Assembly (NCBI GenBank): GCA_017306155.1
Contig: JAFKJB010000016.1
Coordinates: 17,382-81,381 of the forward strand
Length of the DNA: 64,000 bases
Direction: 5' to 3'
Source: Nitrosospira multiformis
GTDB lineage: Bacteria > Pseudomonadota > Gammaproteobacteria > Burkholderiales > Nitrosomonadaceae
Shown here piece after piece: positions 5,311 to 25,778 of the stretch. How positions within the stretch are numbered: the stretch's first letter is position 1; every line of letters starts with the position of its first letter. The translations under genes were made by a program, and so were the position numbers. The notes under the pieces are model-generated. The model was not told where the DNA came from. It ran no database searches and was given only the letters and a program-made list of their open reading frames with translations.

Positions 5311-5318
5311 GAAGAGGT

Positions 5319-6218: not shown

Positions 6219-6273
6219 GAACAGTCCTGAAATTGCTCGATTATACCCGTAAGAAATTCAGGGGTTCGACCAC

Positions 6274-6309
6274 GGAACTCACCATGGAACTCGCCATTGA
6301 ATTCGCTAC
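6274..6309. repeat. Three degenerate 12-bp tandem repeats
   Basis: GGAACTCACCAT / GGAACTCGCCAT / TGAATTCGCTAC in a divergent intergenic region. Confidence 0.6.
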
Positions 6310-6626: not shown

Positions 6627-7187
6627 ATGAATAATATGCCCAGCAAAAAATCAATTATTTCCCTCGCGCTGGGGTCTGCTTTTGCTGCAACGCTTGGTAC
6701 TGCTTCCGTTGCTTCTGCAGGCGACAACCCTTTCGCTGCACAATTCCTTCAGAAAGGCTTCATGGTAGCGGACAGTCATTATGATGACAAAGGCGGATAC
6801 GGTGACGCGGGCGCCGGATATGGTGACAGGAAGGATGCCTACGGTGGCGACAAGAAGCATGGAGAAGGCCGCTGTGGAATGTCCATGGCGGACTCCGATA
6901 ATGATGGCAGGGTAAGCAGGGAAGAGCACGCCCGCCACGCTGAAATGATGTTTAACAAGGCGGATACCAACAGGGATGGGTATATCGATAAGGACGAGGC
7001 CAGCGCGATGAGGAAAAAATACCGCGGCCATGGCCATGGTTCCCGGTCCGGTGACCAATACGGTGGATCAGGTGACCAGTACCGCGGTAACCGCGATGGC
7101 GGCGTCGATGTGCATCGTTACCGCGAATATGGAGCGGGTGAGACCGTTCCACGTTATTTGCCCCACATGAGGACCATGGGCGAGTAA
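6627..7187 (+). CDS. Exported Gly-rich protein with HvfA-like leader, EGRCG motif and two EF-hands
   Basis: SD AGGAGA before ATG 6627; signal peptide then NPF...L.KGFMVA; EF loops DSDNDGRVSREE and DTNRDGYIDKDE. Confidence 0.8.
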   Translation: MNNMPSKKSIISLALGSAFAATLGTASVASAGDNPFAAQFLQKGFMVADSHYDDKGGYGDAGAGYGDRKDAYGGDKKHGEGRCGMSMADSDNDGRVSREEHARHAEMMFNKADTNRDGYIDKDEASAMRKKYRGHGHGSRSGDQYGGSGDQYRGNRDGGVDVHRYREYGAGETVPRYLPHMRTMGE

Positions 7188-7223
7188 AGCAATTCATCAG
7201 CGCTGACGCCAGTGGTGATTCCG

Positions 7224-7261
7224 CCTTGCCGACAACCGGTTTTAACCGGTTGTCGGCAAGG
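7224..7261. terminator. Perfect 18-bp inverted repeat between convergent genes (probable bidirectional terminator)
   Basis: CCTTGCCGACAACCGGTT-TT-AACCGGTTGTCGGCAAGG; no long U tract. Confidence 0.55.
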
Positions 7262-7362
7262 TTGTCCTGCTGCGGAATGATAGGGCACCGGTGTTTATAT
7301 CTTATTATCTTCCTACCCGGTTGCAGTGCTGCAGACAGCGACATACGTACTGGTTGCTGGTA

Positions 7363-8601
7363 TCAGCTCCGATACTCGGCGTTGATCTTTACATAATCGT
7401 AAGACAGATCGCAGGTCCAGACAGTGGCTGCAGCCTGTCCTCTATTCAGCGCGACACGCACGGTAATTTCCGATTGTTTCATCACCCGCTGTCCCTCCTT
7501 CTCCTCGTAAGCGAAAGCTCTCCCCCCGTTTTCCGCAACCAGTACATCGTCGAGATAAAGTTGCAGCTTGTTGATGTCAAGCGCTTCTATGCCTGCATAG
7601 CCGATGGCGGCCAGTATTCGCCCGAGATTGGGATCTGAAGCGAAGAACGCTGTTTTGATCAGGGGCGAGTGCGCAATCGCATAGGCAACCTTGCGGCATT
7701 CCGCCACGGTTCTGCCACTTTCTATCTGGATTGTGATGAATTTGGTCGCGCCTTCGCCATCGCGCACGATTGCCTGCGCAAGTTCCACTGCGACACCGGT
7801 TATCGCATCCTGCAATTGCATAAACTCGGGGCTATTCTTATTTACGATGGGTGCGTGAGCGGCGCGTCCGCTGGCCATCAGAATGAATGCGTCATTGGTG
7901 GAAGTATCGCCGTCCACCGTGATGCAGTTGAATGAATGGTCAGCGGCGTGCTGGACCATGTGTTCCAGCAATGCGTTGCTTACGGCGGCATCGGTTGCGA
8001 TAAAACCCAGCATGGTGGCCATGTTCGGACGAATCATCCCCGAACCCTTGGCAATTCCGGTAATTGTCACGGTTACACCATTGAGGGAAATTTGCCGGGA
8101 TGCCGCCTTCGGGACAATATCGGTTGTCATGATCGCTTCAGAGGCGGCAAACCAGTTATCGGCTCCAAGATCGTTTATTGCCCCCGGCAAGCCGGTAACG
8201 ATTTTCGGGAGCGGCAAGGGCTCCATGATCACGCCGGTTGAAAAAGGCAGTACCTGTTCAGTGGCGCACCCGAGCAGCCGGGCAGTCTCGGCGCAGGTCG
8301 TGCGGGCATCTTCTATGCCCCTTTCGCCGGTGCCGGCATTGGCGCATCCCGTATTGATGACAAGGGCACGAATAGAACCATTTGAATCGAGGGACGAGAG
8401 ATGTTCCCGGGCGACTATGACCGGCGCTGCGCAAAAATCATTCTGGGTAAACACTCCCGCCACTGCCGCACCGTCATCCAGAACGATGACCAGCAGGTCC
8501 TTGCGCTCCGGTTTCCTGATGTTGGCTTCCACTGTGCCCAGGGTGAGGCCTTTTATGGCCAGGAGCTGTTCGGGCAGGGCAGGTGTAAAGTTGACAGGCA
8601 T
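7363..8601 (-). CDS. argJ: Ornithine acetyltransferase / N-acetylglutamate synthase
   Basis: [51 protein letters not shown]. Confidence 0.97.
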
Positions 8602-8956
8602 GATGGATAGGCGTAGATAGGCGAGGTAATTGGCGAATGAAGCGCAATCGATGCTTGGTTAAAAGAATACAGTGGTATTATCGTCCACCTTTGTTTTTTG
8701 AATCGGAAGAGCAGATTTGAAAAAACGCAATGCTAACCCATCTTCAGGTTCTCCTCCATCTCATCTTTCAGCCCCTGATAATGCCGGATAGTCCGGCATT
8801 AACCTGACGAACAGAAATTAGAATTTTTGTAACTGATAGAAATGCTGCTATCGGCCAACGACTTTTGTTCGTCGGGTCCCCTGTTTTACCTGGTGGTACC
8901 ACTTTGAATGCGATGAAGGTGGACCGGGAGCGGGCCACGAGTAAAGGAGAATTTGC

Positions 8957-9184
8957 ATGAATTGCGATAAAGAACTGGATGTGCGCGGACTGAATTGTCC
9001 GCTGCCCATATTGCGCACTAAAAAATCGCTCGTGGACATGGTATCCGGTCAGGTATTGAAGATTATGGCCACTGATCCCGGCGCTGTAATCGATTTCCAG
9101 GTTTTTGCCGAGCAGACGGGAAATGAGCTGCTGTCGTTGTCGGAAGCGGCGGGTGAATTCACGTTTTATATGAAGAAGAGGTAG
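8957..9184 (+). CDS. tusA: TusA/SirA-family sulfurtransferase
   Basis: LDVRGLNCPLPIL (CPxP), ATDPG; SD AAGGAG. Confidence 0.88.
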   Translation: MNCDKELDVRGLNCPLPILRTKKSLVDMVSGQVLKIMATDPGAVIDFQVFAEQTGNELLSLSEAAGEFTFYMKKR

Positions 9185-9251
9185 TGAAGCAACAGCAGGA
9201 AGCAGCAAGAAGTGGCCGGAAGCAAGGAGCGATCTAAGGAAAATCTGAACT

Positions 9252-10115
9252 TCAGAATTCATGGTATGCCACTGGTCTTTCCGGGCACGCGTGCAGCCGT
9301 TGCGCTACGCGCTGGTAGGCTGCCGGTGAATCGATGGCCCGCTGAGCGGCGACGGCACCATTCATCAGATGCTGATGCAAAGGTTTCAGTATCCCCTCCA
9401 CCCAGGGCCTTGAGTCAGCCCGGGCCTGGTTTTGCGAAGCATAGTAACGCGGTTGGGAAAAGGCCGCGCGCAGCGGTTCCTCCAGCATTCTCGCGCCAAT
9501 ACGAAAATGCGACCGCCATGCTGAGACATGTTCCTGTTCATGTTCGCGCACAATATTTCTTCTGCAGCTGTCGTTGAGTTCCCTGGCAAGATATACCCGC
9601 ATTGCCGCAAACCCCAGTTTGATCGAGATATCCGGCACCATGCACGTTTGTCCGTCCGTGCTTGTCCGCCACCTTGTCCGGAATTCGTATCTGAATTCCG
9701 GTTCGGCATGCGTCAATCCGTACACGTTGTGATACGCGTCCCTGGTTTTTCCTGACACTGATTGAAGCGCCTTGGCCGTGCGCGAGCTGTCTTCGGCCGG
9801 CGTGACATCCGCATACACAACCGTCACCTTGCCGGGACCCATCAGTTTCTCGCAGCCGACTTTGAATGAGTCATTGCCGGCTAAAGCCATCCGTTCCGGT
9901 AATAGAAGCAGAAGCAGAAGCAGAAGCAGAAGCAGCAACGGCAGCCCGGTGAAAAAGCTGGCTGCGCGGTCTTCACCGTTTTGATCGTTCCCGATGAATC
10001 TCAAATAATCAACCCTGGCGGAGTAAGGCGGGAAGTCGGGGTTGCGATAAGGTTCATGCCAGGCAAGCATGGCGGGTAAGCGTAGTTTCATGCCGGATAA
10101 CAACGCGTATACCAC
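9252..10115 (-). CDS. Probable exported DUF922-like zinc-peptidase-fold protein (start uncertain)
   Basis: Leu13 hydrophobic stretch then ALA; HEQEH (HExxH); Cys residues typical of an exported protein. Confidence 0.55.
   Translation of the reverse strand: MVYALLSGMKLRLPAMLAWHEPYRNPDFPPYSARVDYLRFIGNDQNGEDRAASFFTGLPLLLLLLLLLLLLLPERMALAGNDSFKVGCEKLMGPGKVTVVYADVTPAEDSSRTAKALQSVSGKTRDAYHNVYGLTHAEPEFRYEFRTRWRTSTDGQTCMVPDISIKLGFAAMRVYLARELNDSCRRNIVREHEQEHVSAWRSHFRIGARMLEEPLRAAFSQPRYYASQNQARADSRPWVEGILKPLHQHLMNGAVAAQRAIDSPAAYQRVAQRLHACPERPVAYHEF
9904..9933. repeat. Hexanucleotide microsatellite (AGAAGC)5
   Basis: Five perfect copies; on the minus strand it lies within a (CTGCTT)5 run encoding poly-Leu. 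Confidence 0.95.
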
Positions 10116-10271
10116 TTTTGTGTTGGCTATCGCACAGAAGTCTGCTGCTCGATGGGAAATACTGATCTTTCACTTGAAGCATCCCTCTCTGGGCCCGCAG
10201 TTTTTTATGTGGACCGGCCTGTTTAGTCTGGTGAATCAATCAAAGGACCAAGCCCAAAGGAGCCTAAATCC

Positions 10272-10715
10272 TTGAATGCTTCCGCGACACAAGCAACAGA
10301 AATCTGGCCCCTGGTTGCATATTTCTTCCTCGTTGTCGCGCTGGTTGCGGGCATCATGGCGCTTTCGTACATCATTGGCGAGCGTCATGGATCGAAGGCC
10401 GCGGACGAGCCATTTGAAAGCGGTATTGTCACTGTCGGCCTTGCGCGCTTGCGCCTGTCCGCCAAATTCTATCTGATCGCCGTGTTCTTTGTGATCTTCG
10501 ATGTGGAAGCCGTATTTCTTTTTGCCTGGGCCGTTGCTTTTCGTGAATTGGGCTGGTTTGGTTATATCGAGGCGATTATCTTCATATCTGTTCTGGTAGC
10601 GGCCCTCGCGTATTTATGGCGGCTGGGTGCGCTGGATTGGGGACCGGCCAGGCATTCGGCTGGCAGGTTTGTCAAAGATTCAAGGAGTCCAAACCATGCG
10701 GTGGTCTCTAAGTAA
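10272..10715 (+). CDS. nuoA: NADH:quinone oxidoreductase subunit A
   Basis: [29 protein letters not shown]. Confidence 0.95.
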
Positions 10716-11361
10716 GCCCTCCGACAAACCATCCGGAGCGGCAACATCCGGATCTTCAATAATTCGCGATAACGGTTTTGAGGAGGACGGGCGCCGCAGC
10801 GTATTGCTGGCGCGGTTGCAGGACCTTGTCGCCTGGGGCCGCAAGAATTCGGTCTGGCCTTATAACTTTGGGCTGTCGTGCTGTTATGTGGAAATGGCGA
10901 CCAGCTTCACCAGCAAGTACGATCTTGCCCGGTTTGGTTCCGAAGTTATCCGCGCCTCCCCTCGCCAGGCCGATCTGATCGTTATTTCGGGGACGGTTTT
11001 TATCAAGATGGCGCCCGTGCTCCAGCGGCTTTACGATCAGATGCTTGAACCGCGCTGGGTTATTTCGATGGGTTCATGCGCGAATTCGGGTGGAATGTAT
11101 GATATTTACAGCGTGGTGCAGGGTGTAGACCGCTTCCTTCCCGTGGATGTTTATGTTCCTGGGTGCCCGCCTCGGCCCGATGCATTCATGCAGGGGCTGA
11201 ATCTGCTTCAGGATGCGATCGGCAAGGAAAAGCGCCCGTTGAGCTGGGTGATCGGTCCGCAGGGAATCGAGCGGCCGGCTGGGGGATCGCAGCGGGATCT
11301 CAAGCGGTCCGAGCGAATGCGCGTCACGACCCTGCGCAGTCCCGACGAGGTACAAAAGTGA
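10696..11361 (+). CDS. nuoB: NADH:quinone oxidoreductase subunit B
   Basis: [29 protein letters not shown]; start placed at ATG 10696. Confidence 0.96.
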
Positions 11362-13202
11362 GCGCAGCCTCCAGCCTTGCCCCGCCGCGGCACATGGAGG
11401 ATATGCAGGATAGGCCGCATATGCCTGATGCGCCGAACGCTTCAGAGGTACTGGAAGAACTGAAGAGCCGCTTTGGCTCTCCTGGCCCTGGCAACTCAGG
11501 CGGGTCGATGGGTTTAGTGCAGAAAACCGGCGATGACCTTCCCACGCAATGGGTTTCCAGGGACGGGGTGCATGAGATTTTGCGCTACCTGAAACTGGAA
11601 GCGGAGCGGCCTTACCGCATGCTGTACGACCTGACCGCGATTGATGAGCGTACCCGCGTGCACCGCGAAGACCAGCCGGCAAGTCAATTCACTGTCATCT
11701 ATCACCTGCTGTCGTTCGAGCGTAATGCTGACATGCGTCTCAAGGTCGCGCTCACCGATGCTGATCTTCGCATGCCCACCATTACCGATATCTGGCCTGC
11801 GGCCAACTGGTACGAGCGTGAGATATGGGACATGTTCGGGATCGTCTTCGACGGGCATCCGCACCTGCGCCGAATTTTGTTACCCCCCTGGTGGCAGGGG
11901 CACGCCCTGCGCAAGGACCATCCGGCTCGCGCGACCGAGATGGAACCGTTCCATTTGTCCGCGGAGAAGGAGGAGGCTGAGCAGGAAACGCTGCGTTTTC
12001 ATCCTGAAGAATGGGGAATGCGCCGCGCACATGACAGCACCGATTTCATGTTCCTCAACCTGGGGCCGAACCATCCAAGCGTGCATGGCGTATTTCGCAT
12101 TGTACTGCAGCTCGACGGCGAGGAAATCATCGACGCTGTGCCAGAGATCGGCTATCACCATCGCGGAGCGGAAAAGATGGGCGAGCGCCAGTCCTGGCAT
12201 ACCTACATTCCCTATACCGACCGCATCGATTACCTGGGAGGGGTCATGAACAACCTTCCCTATGTGCTGGCTGTGGAAAAGCTGGCAGGCATTGAAGTGC
12301 CTGACCGGGTAAAGGTGGTGCGCGTGATGATGGCTGAATTTTTTCGCATTGCAAGCCATCTGGTGTTCTATGGGACTTTTACCCAGGATCTGGGCGCGCT
12401 TTCCCCGGTCTTTTTCATGTTCACCGACCGCGAGCGCGTGTTCGATGTCGTCGAAGCCATCTGTGGGGGGCGAATGCACCCGAGCTGGTACCGCATCGGC
12501 GGTGTAGCCCAGGACTTGCCCAATGGATGGGATCGGGTGGTGCGGGATTTCCTGGATTATATGCCTGCAAGACTGGACGAGTACGACAAGATTGCTGTAG
12601 GCAACCGTATCCTGAAAGCCCGGACGCGCGGCGTCGGCAGTTACTCGACAGAGGAGGCGATCGAATGGGGCGTGACGGGGCCCAATCTGCGCGCCTGCGG
12701 TCTCGAATGGGACTTCCGCAAGGCACGCCCGTATTCGGGCTATGACCAGTTCGAGTTCGATGTGCCAACCGGGCAGCAGGGCGATTGCTATGATCGCTGC
12801 GTTGTCCGCGTGCAGGAAATCCGCCAGAGCCTGCGCATCATCGAGCAGTGCCTGGAGAACATGCCGGCCGGCTTGCATAAAGCGGATCATCCGCTCACCA
12901 CGCCGCCGCTCAAGAAGCATACCTTGCATGACATCGAAACGCTCATCGATCATTTCCTGGGCGTGAGCTGGGGCCCTGTCATTCCTCCGGGAGAAGCATT
13001 TGTAGGCATCGAGGCCACCAAGGGAAACAACGGCTATTACCTGGTCAGCGACGGCAATACCATGGCTTATCGGGTGCGTATCCGCACACCTTCCTTTCCG
13101 CACCTGCAAATGATTCCTTTGATCAGCCGTGGACTGATGATTTCGGACTTGATCGCCATTCTGGGCAGCATCGATTTTGTCATGGCGGACGTGGACCGCT
13201 GA
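11358..13202 (+). CDS. nuoCD: Fused NADH:quinone oxidoreductase subunit C/D
   Basis: [13 protein letters not shown] (C) in frame with [29 protein letters not shown] (D); GTG overlaps the nuoB stop, a later ATG start is possible. Confidence 0.95.
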
Positions 13203-13236
13203 TGCGGATCACTGAGGGGGATACCGAGGGGAAACA

Positions 13237-13755
13237 ATGCTGAGCGAGCAGGAGATGAGAGAAATAGAAGTGCATGCGCGGCACTACCCGAATAACCGGG
13301 CGGTGTGCATCGAGGCGCTCAAGATCGTGCAGCAGCATCGCGGCTGGGTATCGAACGAGGGGATTGCCGACGTGGCCGAGGCGCTGCAGATGAAGCCGGC
13401 GGAACTGGAGGCCGTTGCAACCTTCTACAACATGATTTTCCGCAAGCCCGTAGGCAAGCATGTCATTTTGCTATGCGACAGCGTCAGCTGCTGGATCATG
13501 GGTTATGAACGCCTGCGCGAGCACCTGGGAGACAGGCTGGGTATCAGGCCGGGCCAGACCACCGCCGACGGGCGCTTCACGCTGTTGCCGAATGTGTGCC
13601 TGGGCGCCTGTGACCATGCTCCTGTCATGATGGTGGATGATGCGCATTACCAGGACCTGGATCCCGCCAGGATCGATGAAATTCTGGCAAGTTATCAGCA
13701 GGAAGAAAAAAGGGAAGAAGAAAAACCGACCGATGGAAACACCGCTGACTCATAA
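13237..13755 (+). CDS. nuoE: NADH:quinone oxidoreductase subunit E
   Basis: CDSVSC and CLGACD 2Fe-2S motifs. Confidence 0.95.
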   Translation: MLSEQEMREIEVHARHYPNNRAVCIEALKIVQQHRGWVSNEGIADVAEALQMKPAELEAVATFYNMIFRKPVGKHVILLCDSVSCWIMGYERLREHLGDRLGIRPGQTTADGRFTLLPNVCLGACDHAPVMMVDDAHYQDLDPARIDEILASYQQEEKREEEKPTDGNTADS

Positions 13756-15007
13756 CATTTCACCGGGCGGGGAGCCGCCGGATCTTGCGCAGTACGAGAA
13801 GACCGGCGGTTATGCCGCGTTGCGCAAGGTGCTCGGCATGGCGCCGGCGGAAGTTCAGGCAGTGGTGAAGGAATCAAACCTGCGCGGGCGTGGCGGGGCG
13901 GGATTCCCAACCGCGCAGAAATGGAGTTTTGTGCCGATGGGCGATGATGCGCCGCGGCCCAAGTATCTCGTTTGCAATGCGGACGAGATGGAGCCGGGGA
14001 CATTCAAGGATCGCCTGTTGCTCGAAGGCGATCCCCATCAGTTGATCGAGGGCATTATCATCAGCGCCTATGCGATCCAGGCCGATGTGGCTTACGTATT
14101 TCTGCGCTGGGCCTACAAACTGGCGGCCCGGCGCATGGAGAAGGCAATCGCTGAAGCATATCGCCACAGCTACCTGGGTAAAAATATCCTGGGCTCGGCG
14201 TACAGCCTGGAGATGCACCTGCACGTCAGTGCCGGGCGCTACATGTGCGGGGAGGAAACTGCGCTGCTCAATGCCCTCGAAGGCAAGCGCGCCAATCCGC
14301 GCGCCAAGCCTCCCTATCCCCAGGTGAGCGGCTTGTGGGGCAAGCCCACCATTGTCAATAACGTGGAGACTCTGTGCAATATTCCGCACATCGTGAGCCA
14401 GGGCGCCGAATGGTTCAAGAGCCTGAGCCGCAGCGGCGGCGGTACCAAGCTGTACGGGATAAGCGGGAGAGTGAAGAAGCCGGGGTTATGGGAATTGCCC
14501 ATGGGCACTTCCATGCGGGAGATTCTGGAAGAGCACGCGGGCGGCATGTGTGACGGCTATCAGTTTCGCGGGTTGCTGCCGGGTGGCGCTTCCACGGATT
14601 TTGTTACGGCCGAGCACCTCGATGTGGCGATGGACTTCGATTCGATGCAAAAAGTCGGCAGCCGCCTCGGCACCGGCACCATGATTGTCCTTGATGACAA
14701 GACCTGTCCCGTCGGGATGCTCCTCAATCTGGAGCATTTTTTCGCCCAGGAGTCATGCGGCTGGTGCACTCCGTGCTGGTCGGGGCTTTCCTGGATCGAA
14801 CAGATATTGCAGGACATGGAGGAGGGGCGCGGCCGGGCTTCCGACCTTGAACTGCTGGAATCCCATACGCGCCTCCTGGGTCCCGGACATACCTTCTGCG
14901 CCCTGGCGCCGGGCGCAGCCGAGCCGCTGCAAAGCGGCCTCAAGTATTTCCGCGATGATTTCGAGCGCCATATCCATGAGAAACGCTGCCCCTGGAGCCG
15001 GACGTGA
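13733..15007 (+). CDS. nuoF: NADH:quinone oxidoreductase subunit F
   Basis: GRGGAGF, CNADEMEPGTFKDR, CGEETAL, CGWCTPC; start placed at ATG 13733. Confidence 0.96.
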   Translation: METPLTHNISPGGEPPDLAQYEKTGGYAALRKVLGMAPAEVQAVVKESNLRGRGGAGFPTAQKWSFVPMGDDAPRPKYLVCNADEMEPGTFKDRLLLEGDPHQLIEGIIISAYAIQADVAYVFLRWAYKLAARRMEKAIAEAYRHSYLGKNILGSAYSLEMHLHVSAGRYMCGEETALLNALEGKRANPRAKPPYPQVSGLWGKPTIVNNVETLCNIPHIVSQGAEWFKSLSRSGGGTKLYGISGRVKKPGLWELPMGTSMREILEEHAGGMCDGYQFRGLLPGGASTDFVTAEHLDVAMDFDSMQKVGSRLGTGTMIVLDDKTCPVGMLLNLEHFFAQESCGWCTPCWSGLSWIEQILQDMEEGRGRASDLELLESHTRLLGPGHTFCALAPGAAEPLQSGLKYFRDDFERHIHEKRCPWSRT

Positions 15008-15056
15008 GAGATGAAACGGGGAAATATAGCGAGGCGAGGCTGGCAAGGCGAATGTG

Positions 15057-17918
15057 ATGACGACTATCCATATCGACAATCGCCCCTATCCTGCCAAAGA
15101 TGGCGAGAATTTGTTGCAGGAGTGCCTTTCGCTGGGATTCAACCTGCCTTATTTCTGCTGGCATCCCGCGCTGGGCTCCGTAGGCGCGTGCCGCCAGTGC
15201 GCGATCAAGCAGTTCAGGAATGAGGAAGACAAGCGCGGCAAGATTGTCATGGCGTGCATGACTGCCGCCAAGGATGGAATCCGGATTTCCATCGACGATC
15301 CCGAAGCGCGGGAATTTCGCGCAAGTGTGGCGGAATGGCTGATGGTGAATCATCCGCACGATTGCCCGGTGTGCGACGAGGGCGGCGAATGCCATCTGCA
15401 GGATATGACGGTCATGAACGGGCATGTCTACCGCCGCTACCGTGGCCGCAAGCGCACCTTCCATAACCAGGACCTCGGCCCGCTGGTCAATCACGAGATG
15501 AACCGCTGCATTCAGTGCTATCGCTGCACGCGGTTTTATCGTGATTATGCCGGCGGCCGGGATCTGGAAGAACTGGTGCTGCGCAACCAGGTCTACTTCG
15601 GCCGCCATCAGGATGGCGTTCTCGAAAGCGAATTCAGCGGGAACCTGGTGGAGGTTTGCCCTACCGGCGTTTTTACTGATAAGACACTGAAGCGGCACTA
15701 TACGCGCAAGTGGGATTTGCAAACCGCGCCCTCGGTGTGTGTGCACTGCGGACTGGGTTGCAACACCATTCCCGGCGAGCGTTACGGCGCATTGCGGCGC
15801 ATCCGCAACCGTTTCAACGGCGCGGTCAATGGCTACTTTCTATGCGACCGCGGCCGCTATGGCTACGAGTTTGTCAATAGCGCGCGCCGGATCAGACAAC
15901 CTCTGCTGCGAAAAAACAGAACCGAACCCCTGCAGCTTGCCAGCAAACGCGATGCGCTTCAGCATCTGGGCGAAATGCTATCGAGCGGAGTTCGGGCGAT
16001 CGGGATCGGTTCTCCGCGCGCGTCACTCGAAGCCAATTTTGCGTTGCGCACCCTCGTTGGGGGCGACCGGTTTTATCTCGGCATCTCTGAAAGGGATTTC
16101 CGCCTGCTTGCTTCCATTCGGGATATTTTAAAAAAAGGTCCTGCCCGCACCCCCTCATTGCATGAAGTGGAGTTGGCGGATGCGGTGCTGGTATTGGGTG
16201 AGGATGTGACCAATACTGCGCCGCGGCTCGGGCTGGCCCTGCGGCAGTCGGTGCGCCGCCAGCCGGAAAAGAGGGCGAAAAAAATGGATATTCCGCTCTG
16301 GAATGATCATGCGGTGCGGGAGGCGATGCAGAAAGAGCATGGGCCCTTGTTTATCGCCACCGTGGCGGATACCCGAATCGATGATATCGCCACCTGCACC
16401 TTCCGCGGACCTCCCGCTGAATTAGCCCGCCTGGGGCTCGCAATAGCGCACGCGCTCGATCCGGGCGCGCCGCAGGCACCGGATTTATCCGATGCGGCAC
16501 GAGCATTGGCAGGTGCAATTGCCGAAAAGCTGAAGGCGGCAGAGCGCCCGCTGGTCATTTCCGGCATGGGTTGCGGGGATAAAGCCGTTGTTGAGGCAGC
16601 GGCCAATGTGACATGGGCGCTTTGCAACATGGGCCGCCCTGCCGAGCTTTGCTATGTAGTTCCCGAATGCAACAGTCTTGGCGCCATGCTGCTGGGCGGC
16701 GGCAGTCTCGAAACCGCGCTGGAGGCGATGGACGATACTGCTGCGGATATTCTCATCATTCTCGAAAATGACCTTTATCGGCGGGGGGATGCCGCCATGG
16801 TTGATCGGCTTCTCGCTGCCGCGCGGCACATCGTGATGATCGACCACATCGAGCATGCGACCAGCGCGAAAGCTGACGTGGTACTGCCGGCAGCGACCTT
16901 TGCCGAGGCCGATGGCACCCTTGTGAATAACGAAGGCCGGGCGCAGCGGTTCTTTCAGGTATTTGTACCCGAGGGTGAAATCGAAGGTGATAGCAGGAGC
17001 GATACTCCACGCGATATTCCCGGCGATATCCAGGAAAGCTGGCGCTGGATGCGGGACATCATGGTTGCCGGCCGCGGGGACGAAAGGCAATGGTCAAGCC
17101 TGGACGATGTCACTGCTGCTTGCGCCGCAGCGATTCCCTCTCTGGAATCCATTTTACGCGCCGCCCCCTCGGCGGCCTTCCGTATGGACGGACAGAAGAT
17201 TCCGCGCGAGCCCCATCGTTATAGCGGACGCACCGCCATGCACGCCAATATAAGCATCCATGAACCCGAACAGCCGCCTGACCCCGATACGGCCCTGGCA
17301 TTTTCGATGGAAGGCTACCCGGGTCATCCGCCGCCGTCGCTTATTCCCCGCTTCTGGGCGCCCGGCTGGAATTCAATACAGGCGCTAAACAAGTTCCAGG
17401 ATGAAGTGGGTGGTCCGCTTTCCGGGGGCGATCCAGGCGAGCGCCTGATCGAGCCAATGCCCGGAACGGGGAAAAAAGCCGCTTATTTTAAAAATATACC
17501 GGCCGGCTTCGAGCCGCGCGCAGGCGAATGGCTGCTGTTGCCGTTGCATCACATCTTTGGTTCGGAGGAGTTGAGCCTCCTCGCACCCGGTATCGCCGAG
17601 CTCAGTGTCCAGCCCTATCTCGCGCTCAATCCGGAGGATGCAAGTGATCTCGGATTGGCTGCCGGGGATGAGGTGCAGTTGCGTTTGAAGGCGCAGGGGG
17701 ATGCGCAGGTGGACGTTACCGCAGATGGCGCGGCGAACGCTGCCGCTACTACCGCTGAAAATACCGCTGAAATTTTCCGGTTGCCGTTGCGCTTCAAGCC
17801 TGAGCTGCTGCATGGTACTGCCGGACTCCCTGTCGGCCTGGCAGACATGGGTAATCTGGCGGGAATCGCTTTGCCAGCATGGGGCGAGCTAAAGAAGATG
17901 GAGAAGGGAAAGGTGTAA
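15057..17918 (+). CDS. nuoG: NADH:quinone oxidoreductase subunit G, long E. coli-type with N7 cluster motif
   Basis: CWHP..GACRQC, HDCPVCDEGGECHLQ, CIQCYRC, CVHCGLGC...CDRGR. Confidence 0.96.
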   Translation: MTTIHIDNRPYPAKDGENLLQECLSLGFNLPYFCWHPALGSVGACRQCAIKQFRNEEDKRGKIVMACMTAAKDGIRISIDDPEAREFRASVAEWLMVNHPHDCPVCDEGGECHLQDMTVMNGHVYRRYRGRKRTFHNQDLGPLVNHEMNRCIQCYRCTRFYRDYAGGRDLEELVLRNQVYFGRHQDGVLESEFSGNLVEVCPTGVFTDKTLKRHYTRKWDLQTAPSVCVHCGLGCNTIPGERYGALRRIRNRFNGAVNGYFLCDRGRYGYEFVNSARRIRQPLLRKNRTEPLQLASKRDALQHLGEMLSSGVRAIGIGSPRASLEANFALRTLVGGDRFYLGISERDFRLLASIRDILKKGPARTPSLHEVELADAVLVLGEDVTNTAPRLGLALRQSVRRQPEKRAKKMDIPLWNDHAVREAMQKEHGPLFIATVADTRIDDIATCTFRGPPAELARLGLAIAHALDPGAPQAPDLSDAARALAGAIAEKLKAAERPLVISGMGCGDKAVVEAAANVTWALCNMGRPAELCYVVPECNSLGAMLLGGGSLETALEAMDDTAADILIILENDLYRRGDAAMVDRLLAAARHIVMIDHIEHATSAKADVVLPAATFAEADGTLVNNEGRAQRFFQVFVPEGEIEGDSRSDTPRDIPGDIQESWRWMRDIMVAGRGDERQWSSLDDVTAACAAAIPSLESILRAAPSAAFRMDGQKIPREPHRYSGRTAMHANISIHEPEQPPDPDTALAFSMEGYPGHPPPSLIPRFWAPGWNSIQALNKFQDEVGGPLSGGDPGERLIEPMPGTGKKAAYFKNIPAGFEPRAGEWLLLPLHHIFGSEELSLLAPGIAELSVQPYLALNPEDASDLGLAAGDEVQLRLKAQGDAQVDVTADGAANAAATTAENTAEIFRLPLRFKPELLHGTAGLPVGLADMGNLAGIALPAWGELKKMEKGKV

Positions 17919-18003
17919 AAAGGAATAACAGGGAAAGCAAATAGAAGGATAGATAGAGGAAAGAAGCCGCGAATGGATTCAGCCATGAATAGTGGGCTCA
18001 GCC

Positions 18004-18957
18004 ATGAATGAATGGACCCCCATCTGGGCAAACCTGATTTTGATCCTGGCCGTCGTGTTTGCTTTCTCGGCGATGCTCTCCTGGATCGAGCGCCGCCTGC
18101 TCGGGCTGTGGCAGGATCGCTATGGGCCCAATCGGGTAGGACCATTCGGGGTTCTGCAAATCGTCGCCGATTCGATCAAGCTTCTTGCCAAGGAGGACTG
18201 GATACCACCCTTCGCAGACAGGGCGGTGTTCGTGCTGGCGCCGGCAATCGTTGCCGTCACCACGCTGCTTGCGTTTTCCGTCGTGCCAATCGCGCCGGGC
18301 ATCGGCGTGGTCGATCTGAACATCGGATTATTGTTTTTTCTTGCCATGTCTTCGCTGGGCGTCTATAGCATCGTGCTGGGTGGATGGGCGTCCAACAGCA
18401 AATATTCGCTACTCGGGGGCTTGCGCGCCGCGGCACAGATGTTGAGCTACGAGGTTTTCATGGGCCTGGCGCTCATGGGTGTTGTCATGCTCGCCGGTTC
18501 ATTCAACCTGCGCGATATCGTTGCCGCGCAGGAAAATCTCTGGTTCTGCGTACCGCAGATCCTGGGCCTGGCAACTTTTGCCGTGGCAGGGATTGCTGAG
18601 GCGCGCAGGCTTCCTTTCGATCTGCCCGAGTCGGAGAACGAGCTGGTCGCAGGCTTTCATACCGAATATTCCAGCATGAAGTTCGGTCTGTTTTTCATTG
18701 GCGAATACGTCGGGATCACCCTTATCTCGGCAATGATCGTCACATTATTCTTCGGCGGGTGGCTGGGCCCACTGCTGCCTCCGCTGGTCTGGTTTCTGCT
18801 CAAGACTTTTATCGTCGTCGCCTGCTTCGTCCTGCTGCGGGCGGCATTGCCACGCCCCCGTTACGATCAACTGATGGCCTACGGCTGGAAAGTCATGCTG
18901 CCAGTCACGCTTGTCAATTTACTGATCACCGGTGCAGTCGTATTGTCAATGGCATAA
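18004..18957 (+). CDS. nuoH: NADH:quinone oxidoreductase subunit H
   Basis: [33 protein letters not shown]. Confidence 0.96.
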
Positions 18958-18984
18958 CTGCTCATATAGCTTCGGGAGAAGATC

Positions 18985-19500
18985 ATGTGGAATTCTCTGA
19001 AGACAATGTGGATCGTTTTTCTGCACATGTTCCGCCGCCGGGTAACCATTCAATATCCGGACGAAATGCCCAATATCCCGCCGCGCTGGCGTGGACGCAT
19101 CATTCTGAGCCGCGACCCGGATGGGGAGGAACGCTGCGTTGCCTGCTACCTCTGCGCGGCAGCCTGCCCGCCGGATTGCATCGCGCTTCAGGCTACCGAA
19201 GATGAGCATGGGCGCCGCTACCCCGAGTTCTTCCGCATCAATTTTTCGCGCTGCATTTTTTGCGGATATTGCGAAGAGGCCTGTCCTACCGACGCGATCC
19301 AGCTTACGCCGGACTTCGAAATGGGCGAATACAACCGGAAAAACCTGGTGTATGAAAAAGAGGATCTGCTGATCGATGGCACCGGCAAATATCCCGGCTA
19401 TAACTTCTACCGGGTGGCGGGAGTCGCAATCGGAGGAAAAAACAAGGGCGAGGCCGAGAATGAAGCCCCGCCGGTAGATCCGCATTCGCTGTTGCCTTGA
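18985..19500 (+). CDS. nuoI: NADH:quinone oxidoreductase subunit I
   Basis: [12 protein letters not shown] and [12 protein letters not shown]. Confidence 0.97.
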
Positions 19501-19534
19501 TCCGTACCTTTGATTACTGATTCAGGAGGAGGTT

Positions 19535-20101
19535 ATGGAAGCAACATTCTACTTGTCCGGAGCGGTTGCCGTTGCAGCCACGCTGATGGTCGTTACGCGG
19601 GCAAGCGCCGTACATGCATTGCTCTACCTGATCGTGTCCCTGCTTGCGGTGGCGATCATCTTTTTTGTGCTGGGCGCGCCGTTTGTCGCCGCACTGGAGG
19701 TTATCATTTACGCAGGCGCTGTCATGGTGCTGTTCGTGTTCGTGATCATGATGCTCAACCTCGGTAAAGCTGCCGCGGTCAAGGAGCGGGAATGGTTGAG
19801 TCCCGGCATGTGGGTGGGACCCTCCATACTGTCGGCACTGCTCCTGGCAGAACTGATTTATATCCTTGTTCCGAATGTACAGGATGTGCAGGGCGCATAT
19901 GGGGGCGCCGCCCTCTCCGGCGGGGTGGGGGTCGATTCGAAGGAAGTCGGCATCGCGCTCTTCGGGCCCTATCTCCTCGGTGTCGAACTGGCATCGCTGC
20001 TGCTGCTGGCAGGATTGGTCGGCGCCTGTCATCTCGGCTGGCACACCGAGCTGCGTTCCGGTTCCCATCCGGCATCGCGTCCGGATGGAGTGCGGTCATG
20101 A
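19535..20101 (+). CDS. nuoJ: NADH:quinone oxidoreductase subunit J
   Basis: [33 protein letters not shown]. Confidence 0.95.
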
Positions 20102-20448
20102 CGGCGGCCGGCGCCGCCGCATCCGCTGCTGCCACAGTTGCAGCTGCTGTTCCCATGCATCATGGTCTGTTGCTCGCCGCCATTCTCTTCGCGCTGGGAA
20201 TGGCCGGCATCCTTGTGCGGCGCAACCTGATTTTTATCCTGATGTCGATCGAGATCATGCTGAATGCCGCCGGGCTTGCCTTCGTGGTGGCCGGTTCACG
20301 CTGGGCGCAGGCCGACGGGCAGGTGATGTTCATCTTTATCCTGTCAGTGGCGGCGGCCGAAGTCTCTGTCGGCCTGGCATTGCTGCTGCTGTTGCATCGC
20401 CGCTTCCAGACACTGGACGCCGATGCGGTAAGCAAGATGCGGGGATGA
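20098..20448 (+). CDS. nuoK: NADH:quinone oxidoreductase subunit K
   Basis: [27 protein letters not shown]; ATGA overlap with nuoJ; Ala-rich N-terminus. Confidence 0.95.
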
Positions 20449-20449
20449 C

Positions 20450-22423
20450 ATGCTGCCCCTGCTCTGGCTCATTCCCACGCTGCCTCTAGCCGGCTTCCTG
20501 CTGCTGGCGCTGGGTGGAAGTCATCTGGGGCATCGCAGTATTGCGGTAATCGGGGCGGGATCGGTGGCGCTCTCGGCACTCGTTGCCATCCTGATCGGGA
20601 TCGATTTCATCGCTGCGCCGCCACCGGGTTTTGTTTTCCGGCAGGAAGCATGGACCTGGATCGCCGTGGCCGGTTTCTCGCCAGGAATTGTTTTTTATCT
20701 TGACGCGTTATCACTGGTGATGGTCCTGGTCGTAACTGTCATCAGTTTCCTGATACACCTCTATTCCACAGAGTTCATGAGCCGCGATGAGGATTATGCC
20801 CGCTTTTTCGCCTATATGAATCTCTTCGTCGGCTCGATGTGTATCCTGGTTCTTGCCGACAACCTGCTGTTTCTTTACATGGGCTGGGAAGGAGTGGGAC
20901 TTTGCAGCTACCTGCTGATCGGATTCTGGTATCGCGATCCTGCCAATGGACGCGCGGCGCGCAAAGCATTTATCGTGACCCGGGTTGGCGATACTGCCAT
21001 GGCGATCGGCTTTTTTCTGCTGTTCACCCATCTGGGAACCCTTGATATTCAGCCGTTGATGCAGCGCGCGACGCAGCAGTGGCCGGAGGGGTCGGAACTC
21101 GCCGTTCTCGCTGCAGCGCTTCTGCTTGGCGGTGCGGCGGGCAAATCTGCCCAGCTCCCGCTACAGACGTGGCTGCCAGATGCAATGGCCGGCCCCACGC
21201 CGGTGAGCGCGCTGATGCATGCGGCAACCATGGTGACGGCAGGCGTATATCTGATCGCGCGCACGCACGCGCTCTTTGCGCTCGCGCCGGCAGTGCAGCT
21301 CGCGGTTGCAGTAGTCGGCGCCCTTACTCTGCTGCTGGCAGGATTCAGCGCGCTTGCGCAAAACGACATCAAGCGGGTACTGGCCTACTCGACCATCAGC
21401 CAGCTGGGTTATATGTTCCTTGCCTTGGGAGTAGGGGCCTGGTCAGCCGCCATCTTTCACCTGGTGACGCACGCTTTCTTCAAGTCTTTGCTGTTCCTGA
21501 GCGCAGGCGTGGTCATCATGAGCCTGCACGAGGAACATGATATTTTCCGGATGGGTGCATTGAGGAAAAAACTTCCCGTCACATTCTGGACTTTTCTGAT
21601 CGGCAGCGCATCGCTTGCGGCACTGCCGCTCGTTACCGCGGGCTTCTACAGCAAGGATCTGATTCTTTGGCAGGCCTGGTCGTCGACAGGAGGAAATCCA
21701 TGGTTATGGGCCGCGGGATGGGGAGGTGCGATATTGACGGGCCTCTACATCTTTCGCGTGGTGTTTCTCGTCTTTTTTGGCGAAGCGAGGACTGTGGCGC
21801 CCCCCGAAACCTGCCGGCCGGGGCTGTGCATAACACTACCGCTCATCGTTCTTGCAGCCTTCTCTGTGGTTGGCGGATGGATTGAAACCCCATCTTTTCT
21901 CGGAAATTTAACGCTGTTCTCCGATTTTATTCAGCATGCCTTGCCGCCGACTCAGGTCGTTCACAGCGGTAAAAATGACGAAATCATCCTGGAACTGCTC
22001 GCAGTTGCTGCCTCTCTTGGCAGCATTGCCTTGGCATACCTGTTGTTTTTGAGATATCCCGCCTTTCTCCATGAACTGACGCTGGTCCCGGCATTGGCAA
22101 GCCTCCGGAACTTCTGGCATTTTGGCTGGGGTTTCGACCATCTTTATGAGTTCCTGTTCGTCCGGCCCTATCTCTGGCTTGCCCACGCTGATCAGCGGGA
22201 CGTGATCGACGATATCTACCGCATGGCGTTTTCATGCACGCTCAGGTGGCTCCAGAAGATCAATCGGCACGACCTGATCGACAATATCTATAGCGGCCTG
22301 ACCGGGCTTTGTCTGTTTCTCCATCGCGCCTTGAGTGCAACGCAAAACGGACAGGTACGCCGCTACGCGGCAGCGATTGCCGCCGGTTCGATCGGCATTA
22401 TATTCATGGGAGTATTCGCATGA
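20450..22423 (+). CDS. nuoL: NADH:quinone oxidoreductase subunit L with extended C-terminal lateral helix
   Basis: WEGVG, GKSAQLPLQTWLPDAMAGPTPVSAL, HAFFK, FYSKD. Confidence 0.97.
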   Translation: MLPLLWLIPTLPLAGFLLLALGGSHLGHRSIAVIGAGSVALSALVAILIGIDFIAAPPPGFVFRQEAWTWIAVAGFSPGIVFYLDALSLVMVLVVTVISFLIHLYSTEFMSRDEDYARFFAYMNLFVGSMCILVLADNLLFLYMGWEGVGLCSYLLIGFWYRDPANGRAARKAFIVTRVGDTAMAIGFFLLFTHLGTLDIQPLMQRATQQWPEGSELAVLAAALLLGGAAGKSAQLPLQTWLPDAMAGPTPVSALMHAATMVTAGVYLIARTHALFALAPAVQLAVAVVGALTLLLAGFSALAQNDIKRVLAYSTISQLGYMFLALGVGAWSAAIFHLVTHAFFKSLLFLSAGVVIMSLHEEHDIFRMGALRKKLPVTFWTFLIGSASLAALPLVTAGFYSKDLILWQAWSSTGGNPWLWAAGWGGAILTGLYIFRVVFLVFFGEARTVAPPETCRPGLCITLPLIVLAAFSVVGGWIETPSFLGNLTLFSDFIQHALPPTQVVHSGKNDEIILELLAVAASLGSIALAYLLFLRYPAFLHELTLVPALASLRNFWHFGWGFDHLYEFLFVRPYLWLAHADQRDVIDDIYRMAFSCTLRWLQKINRHDLIDNIYSGLTGLCLFLHRALSATQNGQVRRYAAAIAAGSIGIIFMGVFA

Positions 22424-23922
22424 TCCTCGCTGCATTGATTTTCATTCCGATGGCGGGCGGTTTGCTGGCATGGATGGCGGATCGCTGGTATCCGGGCGCG
22501 GCAAAGTGGTTCGCATTGGTCACGGCGGGCATCGAGTTCGTATTGGCGATATGGCTTTGGCTGCAGTCTGCCAGCGCTATGGCTCTTCCCGCTCATGGAG
22601 GGTGGCTTGGCGAGACCAGGGCGGAATGGATTCCGCGTTTCGGAGTGAGCTTTCATCTGGCCGTGGATGGAATAAGCCTCGTCCTGGTCGTGCTGACCGC
22701 TTTTCTGGCGATAGTATCGGTGGCATGTTCCTGGACGGAAATCCAGAAGCGTGTCGGGTTCTTTTACTTCAACCTGCTATGGACTGTGGCAGGGTCGGTT
22801 GGCGTATTCCTTGCGCTGGACCTGTTTCTGTTTTTCTTCTTCTGGGAATTGATGCTGGTACCGATGTATTTCCTGATCGGAATCTGGGGCCATGAGAACC
22901 GGCAGTATGCATCGATCAAGTTCTTCATTTTCGCGCAGGGGAGCGGCATGTTCATGCTGGTGGCAATTCTTGCACTGGTATTCGTCCATTACCGCAGTAC
23001 TGGAGTCCTGACATTCGATTATTTCGATCTGTTGAATGCCACCCTGTCTCCCTCCGCCGAACTGTGGATCATGCTCGGCTTTTTCATTGCGTTCGCAGTC
23101 AAGACGCCCATCGTGCCATTTCATACCTGGCTGCCGGATGCACATACCGAAGCGCCGACAGCAGGAAGCGTGATTCTTGCAGGAGTGCTGCTGAAAACAG
23201 GAGCCTACGGACTGTTGCGCTTTATTGTTCCGCTATTTCCCGAGGCGGCGGCGCATTTTGCCCCGGTGGCAATGGTGCTGGGAGCAACCGGAATTCTCTA
23301 TGGCGCTTTCCTGGCGTTCGCCCAGACGGATTTCAAGCGTCTCGTGGCCTACACCAGCGTGAGCCACCTGGGCTTTGCGGTGGTCGGGATATTCGCCTGG
23401 AATCCCTGGTCCCTTGGGGGAGCCGTGATGCAGATGATGGCGCACGGCATCAGTACGGGAGCATTGTTTGTAGTCGCAGGCATTTTGCAGGAGCGGACGC
23501 ATACACGCGATATGCAGCGCTATGAAGGCCTGTGGAGCGTCGTGCCGCGCCTGGCGGGAATGGGATTGTTTTTTGCCATTGCCGCGCTTGGGCTGCCGGG
23601 AATGGGTAATTTCGTCGGGGAATTCCTGGTGCTGATGGGATTATCCACCAGCAGCAGCGTGCTTGCGTCCGTCGCGACCGTGGTATTTGTTGCCAGTGTC
23701 GTATATGCGCTTGCGCTGGTGCAGAAAACTTTTCATGGCGAAAATAAGCATGGCTGGCAGCTACATGATCTGTCAGGCCGTGAAATGGTAACTCTGTTTT
23801 CAATGGTAGCCATTACCCTATGGCTGGGGTTGTATCCGCAGCCGGTCCTGAATGCCGCGCCAAACACCGCAAACAGTCCGCCTGCGATTGCTGTCGCCCA
23901 CCATGAGGTCAATGTGGAATGA
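22420..23922 (+). CDS. nuoM: NADH:quinone oxidoreductase subunit M
   Basis: FFFWELML, KTPIVPFHTWLPDAH, LKTGAYG, FVGEFL; ATGA overlap with nuoL. Confidence 0.97.
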   Translation: MILAALIFIPMAGGLLAWMADRWYPGAAKWFALVTAGIEFVLAIWLWLQSASAMALPAHGGWLGETRAEWIPRFGVSFHLAVDGISLVLVVLTAFLAIVSVACSWTEIQKRVGFFYFNLLWTVAGSVGVFLALDLFLFFFFWELMLVPMYFLIGIWGHENRQYASIKFFIFAQGSGMFMLVAILALVFVHYRSTGVLTFDYFDLLNATLSPSAELWIMLGFFIAFAVKTPIVPFHTWLPDAHTEAPTAGSVILAGVLLKTGAYGLLRFIVPLFPEAAAHFAPVAMVLGATGILYGAFLAFAQTDFKRLVAYTSVSHLGFAVVGIFAWNPWSLGGAVMQMMAHGISTGALFVVAGILQERTHTRDMQRYEGLWSVVPRLAGMGLFFAIAALGLPGMGNFVGEFLVLMGLSTSSSVLASVATVVFVASVVYALALVQKTFHGENKHGWQLHDLSGREMVTLFSMVAITLWLGLYPQPVLNAAPNTANSPPAIAVAHHEVNVE

Positions 23923-25475
23923 ACCCGATATCCTCCGCGCTACCTTCCGATTCCCTGCACTTGGATCTCGTGACCTTGGATCTCGCGACCCTGTCACCGC
24001 TCATTCTCCTTGCCGCAGCTGCGGTAGTGGTGATGCTGGCTGCAGCCTTTTACCGTCATCCCCGGCCCGTCATGATATTGACACTCGCCGGACTGGTTCT
24101 GTCATTTACGGCATTGTTCCTGCCGTTCCTGCCTCAAGGCCTCGCGGGCACCCCATCTCCGCAGGTCACAGCTCTGCTGGTACTGGATCAGTATGCACTG
24201 TTTTTTACCGGACTCATCGTTGCCGCGACCTTCGTTGTCGCGATATTGTGTTACCGCTACTTCGGTGGAGGCGAAAGCCGGCATGAAGCACTTTACATCC
24301 TGTTGCTGCTGGCCGCCCTTGGCGGTGGGGTTCTCGTGGCAAGCAGCCATTTTGCTTCATTTCTCCTGGGTCTGGAACTGCTCAGCATTTCGTTGTTTGC
24401 ATTGATCGCCTATCCGCGGTTCACAGAGCATCCTCTCGAGGCAGGAATCAAGTACCTGATCCTCGCCGGGTTCTCATCCGGGTTGCTCTTGTTCGGCATG
24501 GCGCTGGTCTATGCACAGCTCGGGACGATGCAGTTTGTGAAAATCGGGACAATGCTTGCTGCGCCTGAGGAGACACTGGAACTCTATGGGTTGGCGGGGC
24601 TCGCGCTGATTGTGGCCGGTGTCGGATTCAAACTGGCGTTGGTGCCCTTCCACATGTGGACTCCGGATGTATATGAAGGTGCGCCTGCGCCGATTACCGC
24701 GTTCATCGCCACTGTTTCAAAGGGCGCCATGCTTGTCCTGCTGCTGCGCTATTTCCTCATGGCAGGCGCGCACCAGTCGCAGTCGATCACATTCGCATTG
24801 AGCCTGGTTGCCGTCGCGACGATCCTGGCTGGCAATCTGCTTGCCCTGCTACAGAATAACATCAAGCGGATTCTTGCCTATTCCTCGATTGCACAGCTTG
24901 GCTATCTGCTGGTCGGGTTCCTGGCCTTTGACCGACTGGCAATCGAGGCGGTTGCTTATTTTCTGACAGCTTATTTCGTCACCATGCTGGGCGCCTTCGG
25001 CGTGGTAACGGTATTGTCCGAGGGGTTCAATGGCGGATCCGCTGGCGAATTCCATGGGGCGGCGGAAAGGGATAGCGACAGGCTGGCGGACTATGCAGGT
25101 CTGTTCTGGCACAGACCGTGGCTGGCAGGGGTATTTACCGCCATGCTGCTGTCGCTGGCCGGAATTCCCCTGACAATGGGCTTTATCGGGAAGTTCTATA
25201 TAGTGACAGCCGGGGTGGAAGCCTCGTTATGGATGCCTGTGATTACGCTGGTTGTCGGCAGCATCATCGGGCTGTTTTATTATATGCGCATTATCGCAAT
25301 GATGTATGCGTCAGGTTCGGAGGCAGCCGGTGAAGCAATCACGCTGCGTGTCGCAGCACCCTCCTTTGCGGAAAGTGCGATGCTGGCAGCGCTGGTGTTG
25401 TTGCTTGTATGGCTGGGCATCTTTCCGGCTCAGCTTATTGATGTGCTTGGAGGAACGATGGTGAATTTGACCTGA
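23919..25475 (+). CDS. nuoN: NADH:quinone oxidoreductase subunit N
   Basis: FKLALVPFHMWTPDVYEGAP, KRILAYSSI, LSLAGIP, FIGKF. Confidence 0.97.
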   Translation: MNPISSALPSDSLHLDLVTLDLATLSPLILLAAAAVVVMLAAAFYRHPRPVMILTLAGLVLSFTALFLPFLPQGLAGTPSPQVTALLVLDQYALFFTGLIVAATFVVAILCYRYFGGGESRHEALYILLLLAALGGGVLVASSHFASFLLGLELLSISLFALIAYPRFTEHPLEAGIKYLILAGFSSGLLLFGMALVYAQLGTMQFVKIGTMLAAPEETLELYGLAGLALIVAGVGFKLALVPFHMWTPDVYEGAPAPITAFIATVSKGAMLVLLLRYFLMAGAHQSQSITFALSLVAVATILAGNLLALLQNNIKRILAYSSIAQLGYLLVGFLAFDRLAIEAVAYFLTAYFVTMLGAFGVVTVLSEGFNGGSAGEFHGAAERDSDRLADYAGLFWHRPWLAGVFTAMLLSLAGIPLTMGFIGKFYIVTAGVEASLWMPVITLVVGSIIGLFYYMRIIAMMYASGSEAAGEAITLRVAAPSFAESAMLAALVLLLVWLGIFPAQLIDVLGGTMVNLT

Positions 25476-25574
25476 TTGCCGGTGCCTCGTCTATTTGTCA
25501 CAATGAATGCAAAAGGTGGGCAGGACAAAAGATGGGTAGAATTGAGGCAAGCTGGGAAAAAGAGAATTTCAAAA

Positions 25575-25778
25575 ATGCGTGAGTCGGAAATACCCTCTGA
25601 GCCGGATAGAGTGGCATGCAAGGTCTGCTTCAAGGAAATCCCTTTATCTGAAGCAGTGAATGAGGAAGCGACCGATTACATCCTGCATTTTTGCGGGCTG
25701 GACTGTTATGCCAAATGGAAAATTCGGGAAAAGGGCTATGGTTCAGGCAATTCCCCGGAAAGAAAATTATCGTCCTGA
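25575..25778 (+). CDS. DUF3330-like small Cys4 metal-binding protein
   Basis: CKVCFKEIP...DYILHFCGLDCY; start placed at ATG 25575. Confidence 0.72.
   Translation: MRESEIPSEPDRVACKVCFKEIPLSEAVNEEATDYILHFCGLDCYAKWKIREKGYGSGNSPERKLSS

Follow-up and report, generated by a model that had tools for sequence, protein, structure and literature searches.

A 24-residue tandem duplication lengthens the NuoL lateral helix in a Nitrosospira complex I operon with a single nuoM gene

Introduction

In MBH, MBS/Mrp and complex I, that is, in all solved relatives, the length of the lateral helix HL matches the number of pump subunits (PMC7684303), and extra helix length is therefore read as the signature of a fourth pump. 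The locus described here raises the question of what a longer helix means when a single nuoM gene accompanies it. It lies in a stretch of 64,000 nucleotides of Nitrosospira multiformis (assembly GCA_017306155.1, contig JAFKJB010000016.1, positions 17,382–81,381), hereafter the window, which contains a complex I operon whose NuoL carries 24 additional residues in this helix.

Results

Organization of the nuo operon

The whole nuo operon extended from position 10272 to position 25475 and comprised 13 genes of an E. coli-type (clade E) complex I (Table 1). The NCBIfam models called L, M and N once each, in agreement with the first-pass annotation which had counted one nuoM in this operon, and also called A, B, CD, E, F and H–K. 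The NuoCD equivalog match (1074 bits) indicated a fused nuoCD, and the NuoG ORF encoded 954 aa. The nuoM start and the nuoL stop overlapped in an ATGA. The second complex I of the same genome, a clade B operon, was located on a separate contig; N. multiformis is described as having a clade B canonical enzyme and a horizontally acquired clade E one (Spero et al. 2015, PMC4453560).

The window NuoL was 84–94% identical to N. multiformis and N. briensis proteins and 45% identical to E. coli NuoL, with which it aligned over E. coli residues 4–569 (phmmer). When the NuoL model was compared to the E. coli chain, Foldseek gave TM-scores of 0.80 (normalised to the model) and 0.88 (normalised to the E. 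coli chain); the rmsd of 13 Å was due to the unreliable tail of the model, and the comparison confirms the NuoL fold only. The E. coli alignment, the AlphaFold helices and the terminal hydrophobic helix all indicated a C-terminal extension made of TM15, the lateral helix and TM16.

Table 1. Position of the genes and of the nuoL features in the window.
Feature	Position	Strand	Evidence or remark
nuoA, B, CD (fused), E, F, G, H, I, J, K	10272–20448	+	NCBIfam matches per subunit
nuoL, 657 aa	20450–22423	+	NF005141 NuoL equivalog, 689 bits (cut-off 556); TIGR01974, 685 bits
Lateral helix HL region, residues ~545–634, TM15–TM16 interval	22082–22351	+	Alignment to E. coli NuoL 541–569; AlphaFold helices
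Repeat copy 1, WLAHADQRDVIDDIYRMAFSCTLR, residues 576–599	22175–22246	+	V585/I586/D587 align with E. coli P564/L565/N566
Best-kept DNA core, copy 1	22191–22218	+	Partner 22263–22290; 28 nt, 82% identity, 72-nt spacing (repeat search)
Repeat copy 2, WLQKINRHDLIDNIYSGLTGLCLF, residues 600–623	22247–22318	+	Similar to the unduplicated sequence in non-insert relatives (RVDQHDVIDSIYTG...)
TM16 anchor helix of NuoL, residues 635–656	22352–22417	+	AlphaFold helix; mean hydrophobicity 0.43; pLDDT <50, placement unreliable
nuoM, 500 aa, sole nuoM in the operon	22420–23922	+	NF004498 NuoM, 632 bits
nuoN, 518 aa, final operon gene	23919–25475	+	TIGR01770 NuoN, 371 bits

A small ORF immediately following nuoN (25476–25778, forward strand) encoded a Cys-rich domain of the DUF3330 family (Pfam, 50 bits). 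This ORF was absent downstream of nuoN at the N. multiformis Nl7 locus, and likewise at the other loci encoding a long HL, and is therefore probably unrelated to the operon. Compared to a sister and to other lineages, the window NuoN possessed a 14-residue N-terminal extension and loop insertions of 6 residues (PFLPQG) and 11–13 residues (GFNGGSAGEFHG). These small NuoN insertions of the Nitrosospira lineage were not common to the other long-HL lineages.

A 72-nt tandem duplication inside nuoL

The nuoL gene contained an in-frame tandem duplication of 72 nt. The two 15-residue strings by which the first-pass annotation had recognised it, WLAHADQRDVIDDIY starting at position 22175 and WLQKINRHDLIDNIY starting at position 22247 and ending at 22291, had start positions that differ by exactly 72 nt, in both cases in the frame of nuoL. 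Over the full units 34 of the 72 nt and 8 of the 24 aa were identical, and this protein identity was not above chance, 8 matches out of 15 being often reached somewhere in shuffled NuoL sequences. As the self-identity of the protein alone lies within chance, the proof of the duplication comes from the comparison with sister genes. When 117 homologous proteins were aligned, each Nitrosospira-type protein of 656 to 662 aa possessed exactly 24 extra residues, and the nearest non-insert relatives (about 73% identity, 630–646 aa) showed a clean gap at this site. At the DNA level, four non-insert genes showed a clean gap of 72 nt, and two of these genes came from MAGs assigned to the same GTDB genus. 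The duplication was present in 20 separate genomes and is thus not an assembly artefact. The FD...NG span reached 73 aa in the window NuoL (residues 562–634) versus 49 aa in non-insert relatives, in line with the first-pass annotation, which had given 73 aa here and about 49 aa for E. coli NuoL; the positions of D542 and Y590 in E. coli NuoL (PMC3274701) agree with a span of 49 aa.

In another Nitrosospira genome (G010:C1), the repeat cores were identical at about 29 of 30 nt, by a hand count from the alignment, compared to a lower 23 of 28 nt in the window. The closer copies hint at gene conversion, or at a strong codon-level constraint on the D-R-H-D-V-I-D-x-I-Y motif.

Position of the insert and predicted structure

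The phmmer alignment to E. coli NuoL was ungapped across the repeat stretch and placed V585, I586 and D587 on P564, L565 and N566. In E. coli, P564 corresponds to the kink of the amphipathic helix at the contact with NuoM, and L565 and N566 are the residues closest to NuoM (Belevich et al. 2011, PMC3274701). By this correspondence, the duplicated unit is composed of the kink, the NuoM-contact motif and the next helix. A flexible insertion of 6 aa after P564 in the E. coli protein left 78–88% of activity and pumping (PMC3274701).

AlphaFold2, supplied with a 92-sequence alignment, predicted HL helices at residues 562–583, 585–604 and 609–629, followed by TM16 at 635–656, with the helix breaks at the homologous spot in each repeat copy. 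The pLDDT was 83 overall, 50–66 in HL and below 50 in TM16; single-sequence prediction was useless (pLDDT of 44). The new helix 585–604 was strongly amphipathic, with a muH of 0.53 matched by 40 of 2000 shuffles. The insert thus lies inside HL, as the first-pass annotation had proposed, and is predicted, at low confidence, to form an amphipathic helix-kink-helix rather than a disordered loop. A search for a solved structure with a doubled HL module found none and, with the modest AlphaFold confidence in HL, the predicted geometry of the helix is tentative; a looped-out helix, another option of the first-pass annotation, may apply.

Length of the lateral helix in homologues

The length of HL was expressed as the span from W556 to G634. 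This span was 79 residues in the window and 55 residues in all 85 of the non-insert close homologues. A diverse set of 80 clade E loci, drawn from many phyla, gave a span of 55 in 75 loci and of 54 in two; one locus was truncated, and the only other value was 79 (+24). The same +24 was seen in the clade of P0069/P0081 type (659 aa, called insB), in an Anaerolineales MAG and in P0121. The repeat register in these three was shifted by approximately 13 residues, the duplicated unit being WLYDxLxVRPYxWLAxxNxxDxxD. In 127 more distant representatives the distribution of the span was bimodal, with values of 55–62 or 79–87 residues. A native periodicity of 24 residues in HL was considered and discarded: in non-insert sequences the autocorrelation peak at offset 24 was no higher than at offsets 4, 16 and 20.

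The AU test rejected one origin for all insert-bearing sequences (p = 5e-5), which implies at least two independent origins of the +24 length. What the test rejected was solely that the Nitrosospira clade groups with the other lineages; these others (B, C and D) could share one origin, and free trees needed 3 to 5 changes.

The quantised length could be explained without a new subunit if the longer helix were a straight strap in a three-pump enzyme, with TM16 docking one groove further, beside NuoK/J/A instead of NuoN, and clamping the fourth (E-channel) proton path. The three HL segments are all predicted as helical by AlphaFold, and the NuoK/J/A bundle is about as wide as one antiporter subunit. 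Such a docking has no precedent in any solved structure and might clash with the peripheral-arm interface; moreover NuoN showed no correlated changes and the lengths of NuoJ and NuoK were unremarkable. We consider this arrangement rather improbable.

Origin, distribution and constraint in Nitrosospira

With the HL columns left out of the alignment, the NuoL tree recovered the insert-bearing Nitrosospira clade as monophyletic (SH-aLRT of 99%). Its sister was a non-insert protein from a "Nitrosospira sp." MAG, and the further outgroups were also non-insert and single-M. Being nested among such relatives, the insert represents a derived gain and not a relic. It had been suggested in the first-pass annotation that the long helix could be left over from an ancestral 2M complex (a complex I with two nuoM genes) after loss of the second nuoM. 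All that speaks for this suggestion is how large the insert is and which helix hosts it, and the phylogeny contradicts it: the closest relatives, including MAGs of the same genus, are non-insert and single-M, the insert can be recognised as a recent copy of the local sequence, and 2M clusters were not found among the clade E relatives. A relic is therefore very hard to sustain.

Within the clade E complex I, the insert was fixed in a single clade of Nitrosospira. The clade E operon was present in about half of the Nitrosospira genomes searched; those from which it was missing include 12 that are at least 90% complete, and the clade B operon was present in all the Nitrosospira genomes of at least 90% completeness; the clade E enzyme is thus accessory. 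Given this patchy presence, the proposal that the insert matters for reverse electron transport in a nitrifying bacterium is not supported. In other genera of the family, a distant version (46–53% identical) was observed in some genomes of one genus only. Cultured N. multiformis strains carry the insert, and one genus contains nearly identical operons of both kinds, insert-bearing and non-insert. The Nitrosospira duplication is young.

The pooled pairwise dN/dS calculated from 20 genes was 0.13 in the TM core, 0.26–0.33 in the flanking HL and TM16, and approximately 0.72 in each repeat copy. No indel was observed inside the insert across the 20 genome-derived genes and 26 aligned protein clusters. 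Despite this constant length, the insert is only weakly constrained in sequence, and its dN/dS fits partly redundant modules.

Antiporter genes and subunit content of the long-HL lineages

The window genome possessed nine PF00361 genes, corresponding to two L/M/N sets, MrpA and MrpD in an Mrp operon, and DabB beside DabA. All nine were located within their own complexes, and no orphan antiporter-like gene was found in this genome. Insert-bearing Nitrosospira genomes had 8–12 PF00361 genes each. The recruitment of an antiporter subunit encoded elsewhere, another proposal of the initial annotation, thus finds no candidate gene here, and insert-bearing genomes manage with as few as eight such genes.

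The DabA (937 aa, PF10070) and DabB (630 aa, PF00361) genes of the window genome form a pair (G000:C22:55902–60604), a candidate system for the energy-coupled uptake of inorganic carbon by an ammonia oxidiser.

A BLAST search with the window L, M and N showed that six of six long-HL lineages examined have L-M-N only. Three of them are clade E: the window lineage (insA), insB (L010) and P0121 (L128). In P0132 (L130) nuoE/F/G were present, NuoG being only 761 aa, and the upstream end was cut. The last two, P0222 (L131) and P0158 (L132, L133), lack the NADH module. This tally leaves out P0155 and P0178, whose contigs end just past nuoL. No genome close to the 659-aa insB clade was found in the scan of genome contigs. 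Neither a co-varying NuoM or NuoN change common to the long-HL lineages nor a conserved extra gene across their loci was found.

The metagenome contigs with the long-HL nuoL of P0155 and P0178 (L127 and L129) end at most about 450 nt after this gene. These ends may be due to chance, or to assembly breaks at repeated nuoM paralogues, in which case 2M clusters might escape notice on short contigs.

On contig L131 (JGI 3300020129 contig, positions 3670–20157), two complex I operons were observed back to back: first a nuoABCDHIJKLMN cluster that lacks the NADH module and encodes a long-HL NuoL, then a gap of about 650 nt, then a second nuo cluster including nuoE/F/G. The gap contained one small ORF on the opposite strand.

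As a positive control, true L-M-M-N clusters were recovered in two Nitrospira genomes (G121:C36 and G122:C35). The insert in this 2M NuoL was 26 residues long (GASGSTWVEKYIVYAGLNVIGYGNHL), was located about 20 residues nearer to TM16 and was not a copy of the IDG/DxIY module. The first-pass annotation was right that the window insert is of 2M-like size (24 aa compared to 26 aa in genuine 2M NuoL, PMC9040806), and its use of the longer helix as a pointer to an extra pump is weak: close single-M orthologues of the clade have the same length and, given the L-M-N content of all six lineages, a longer helix alone is not the sign of a fourth pump.

It is nevertheless conceivable that four pumps are assembled without a fourth gene, the lengthened helix acting as a ruler which admits an extra antiporter-like subunit, either a second copy of the same NuoM or one borrowed from the clade B operon or from Mrp. 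L, M and N are homologous and packed head to tail, so that an M–M interface may be imagined. The 24 additional residues (about 36 Å) are of the size of one subunit, quantised and independently recurrent, the duplicated unit is exactly the NuoM-contact module, and the real 2M NuoL has its 26-aa insert in the same helix; helix length also tracks pump number in all solved relatives (PMC7684303). Against these points, a second nuoM and an orphan antiporter gene are both absent, each of the six single-M lineages would need the same unusual stoichiometry, dN/dS is relaxed in the insert, the 2M insert has another position and does not copy the window module, and no NuoM change is common to the long-HL lineages. 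On balance we regard a fourth pump as unlikely. If it did exist, a higher proton-to-electron ratio would result and could help reverse electron flow. The specific version in which HL is a molecular ruler and the enzyme assembles L-M-M-N by using its one nuoM gene twice seems to us quite unlikely. Were it true, one duplication of 72 nt would have turned a three-pump complex I into a four-pump one without any new gene, an early step toward the 2M complexes with two diverged nuoM genes.

Discussion

We propose that one in-frame tandem duplication of 72 nt copied one amphipathic module of HL, made of the kink, the NuoM-contact motif (D-x-I-D-x-I-Y) and the following helix. The event would date from the ancestor of a single Nitrosospira lineage within the clade E complex I, an enzyme acquired horizontally, with the exact length being kept afterwards. 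In this model, the extra 24 residues (about 36 Å if helical) would lie on the cytoplasmic membrane surface and add a surplus helix-kink-helix where NuoL touches NuoM. The result would be a modified strap or a stabiliser, with the proton stoichiometry unchanged. We infer the bulged geometry and the unchanged number of pumps. The account that we tentatively prefer, with a probability that we would place a little short of even, is a three-pump enzyme (L-M-N) whose strap has one module in excess where it meets NuoM.

Several observations favour the three-pump reading. The gain is a clean one of 72 nt, nested in non-insert single-M relatives. It maps to the site where the E. coli enzyme tolerates a loop of 6 aa (PMC3274701). 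The predicted helix breaks fall at homologous spots and the new helix is amphipathic. The dN/dS is raised in both copies. Finally, the antiporter genes are all accounted for, the six long-HL lineages are L-M-N and their NuoM and NuoN do not co-vary with the helix. Other observations argue against a surplus module. The near-fixed length of HL, with exactly +24 as the only recurrent alternative, is not expected of a free bulge, which should tolerate many lengths. The +24 length arose at least twice with different repeat registers, the 2M clusters associate a 26-aa HL insert with a real second NuoM, and the insert is devoid of indels in the genes and protein clusters compared.

The mismatch of a long HL without a fourth-pump gene exists in several unrelated bacteria. 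The window locus and five other single-nuoM lineages make the fourth-pump signature unreliable at the gene level. If these enzymes have three pumps, metabolic reconstructions should not infer a higher proton stoichiometry from the length of NuoL. What makes the Nitrosospira case useful is its youth and recurrence, together with its presence in cultured N. multiformis strains.

Comparison with known systems

No mention of an insert in the NuoL of Nitrosospira or of clade E was found in the literature. The E. coli NuoL (3RKO, 7Z7S) is the same subunit from the same clade, and its P564 kink and NuoM contact correspond to the site of the window insert; its FD...NG span has the standard 49 aa, compared to 73 in the window. 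In the 2M complex I, described by Chadwick et al. (2018, ISME J) according to citing papers, the same helix is lengthened, by 26 aa compared to 24 aa in the window (PMC9040806), and two nuoM genes are present where the window has one nuoM and one nuoN. The Nitrospira 2M insert and the window insert thus share the helix and a similar size, and differ in position and origin.

The NADH-module-less clusters (nuoABCDHIJKLMN), such as those of P0158 and P0222, have an HL longer by 24–25 aa and L-M-N only. The homologous module FDxxVVDGxVNG, which corresponds to DVIDDIY in the window, is tandem-doubled in their NuoL. This doubling looks older, the motif being kept in both copies, and the NuoL proteins are about 40% identical to that of the window. 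The cluster type is without nuoEFG, whereas the window operon, with its 13 genes, belongs to clade E and encodes an NADH-oxidising enzyme.

Complex_I_1 and Complex_I_2 of Ca. Manganitrophaceae also have NuoL HL inserts in canonical clusters with one nuoM (Yu et al. 2022, mBio, PMC9040806), and these authors left undecided whether the clusters already take extra pumps or represent an evolutionary transition. The likeness to the window is an insertion of about one module in the C-terminal amphipathic helix of NuoL, in a canonical set of genes with a single nuoM. The Manganitrophaceae inserts are of approximately 26 aa and belong to Nitrospirota, whereas that of the window has 24 aa and belongs to a betaproteobacterial clade E operon, where it is a young duplication with non-insert sisters still extant in the same genus. 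The window insert joins this already-known pattern of a long HL with one nuoM.
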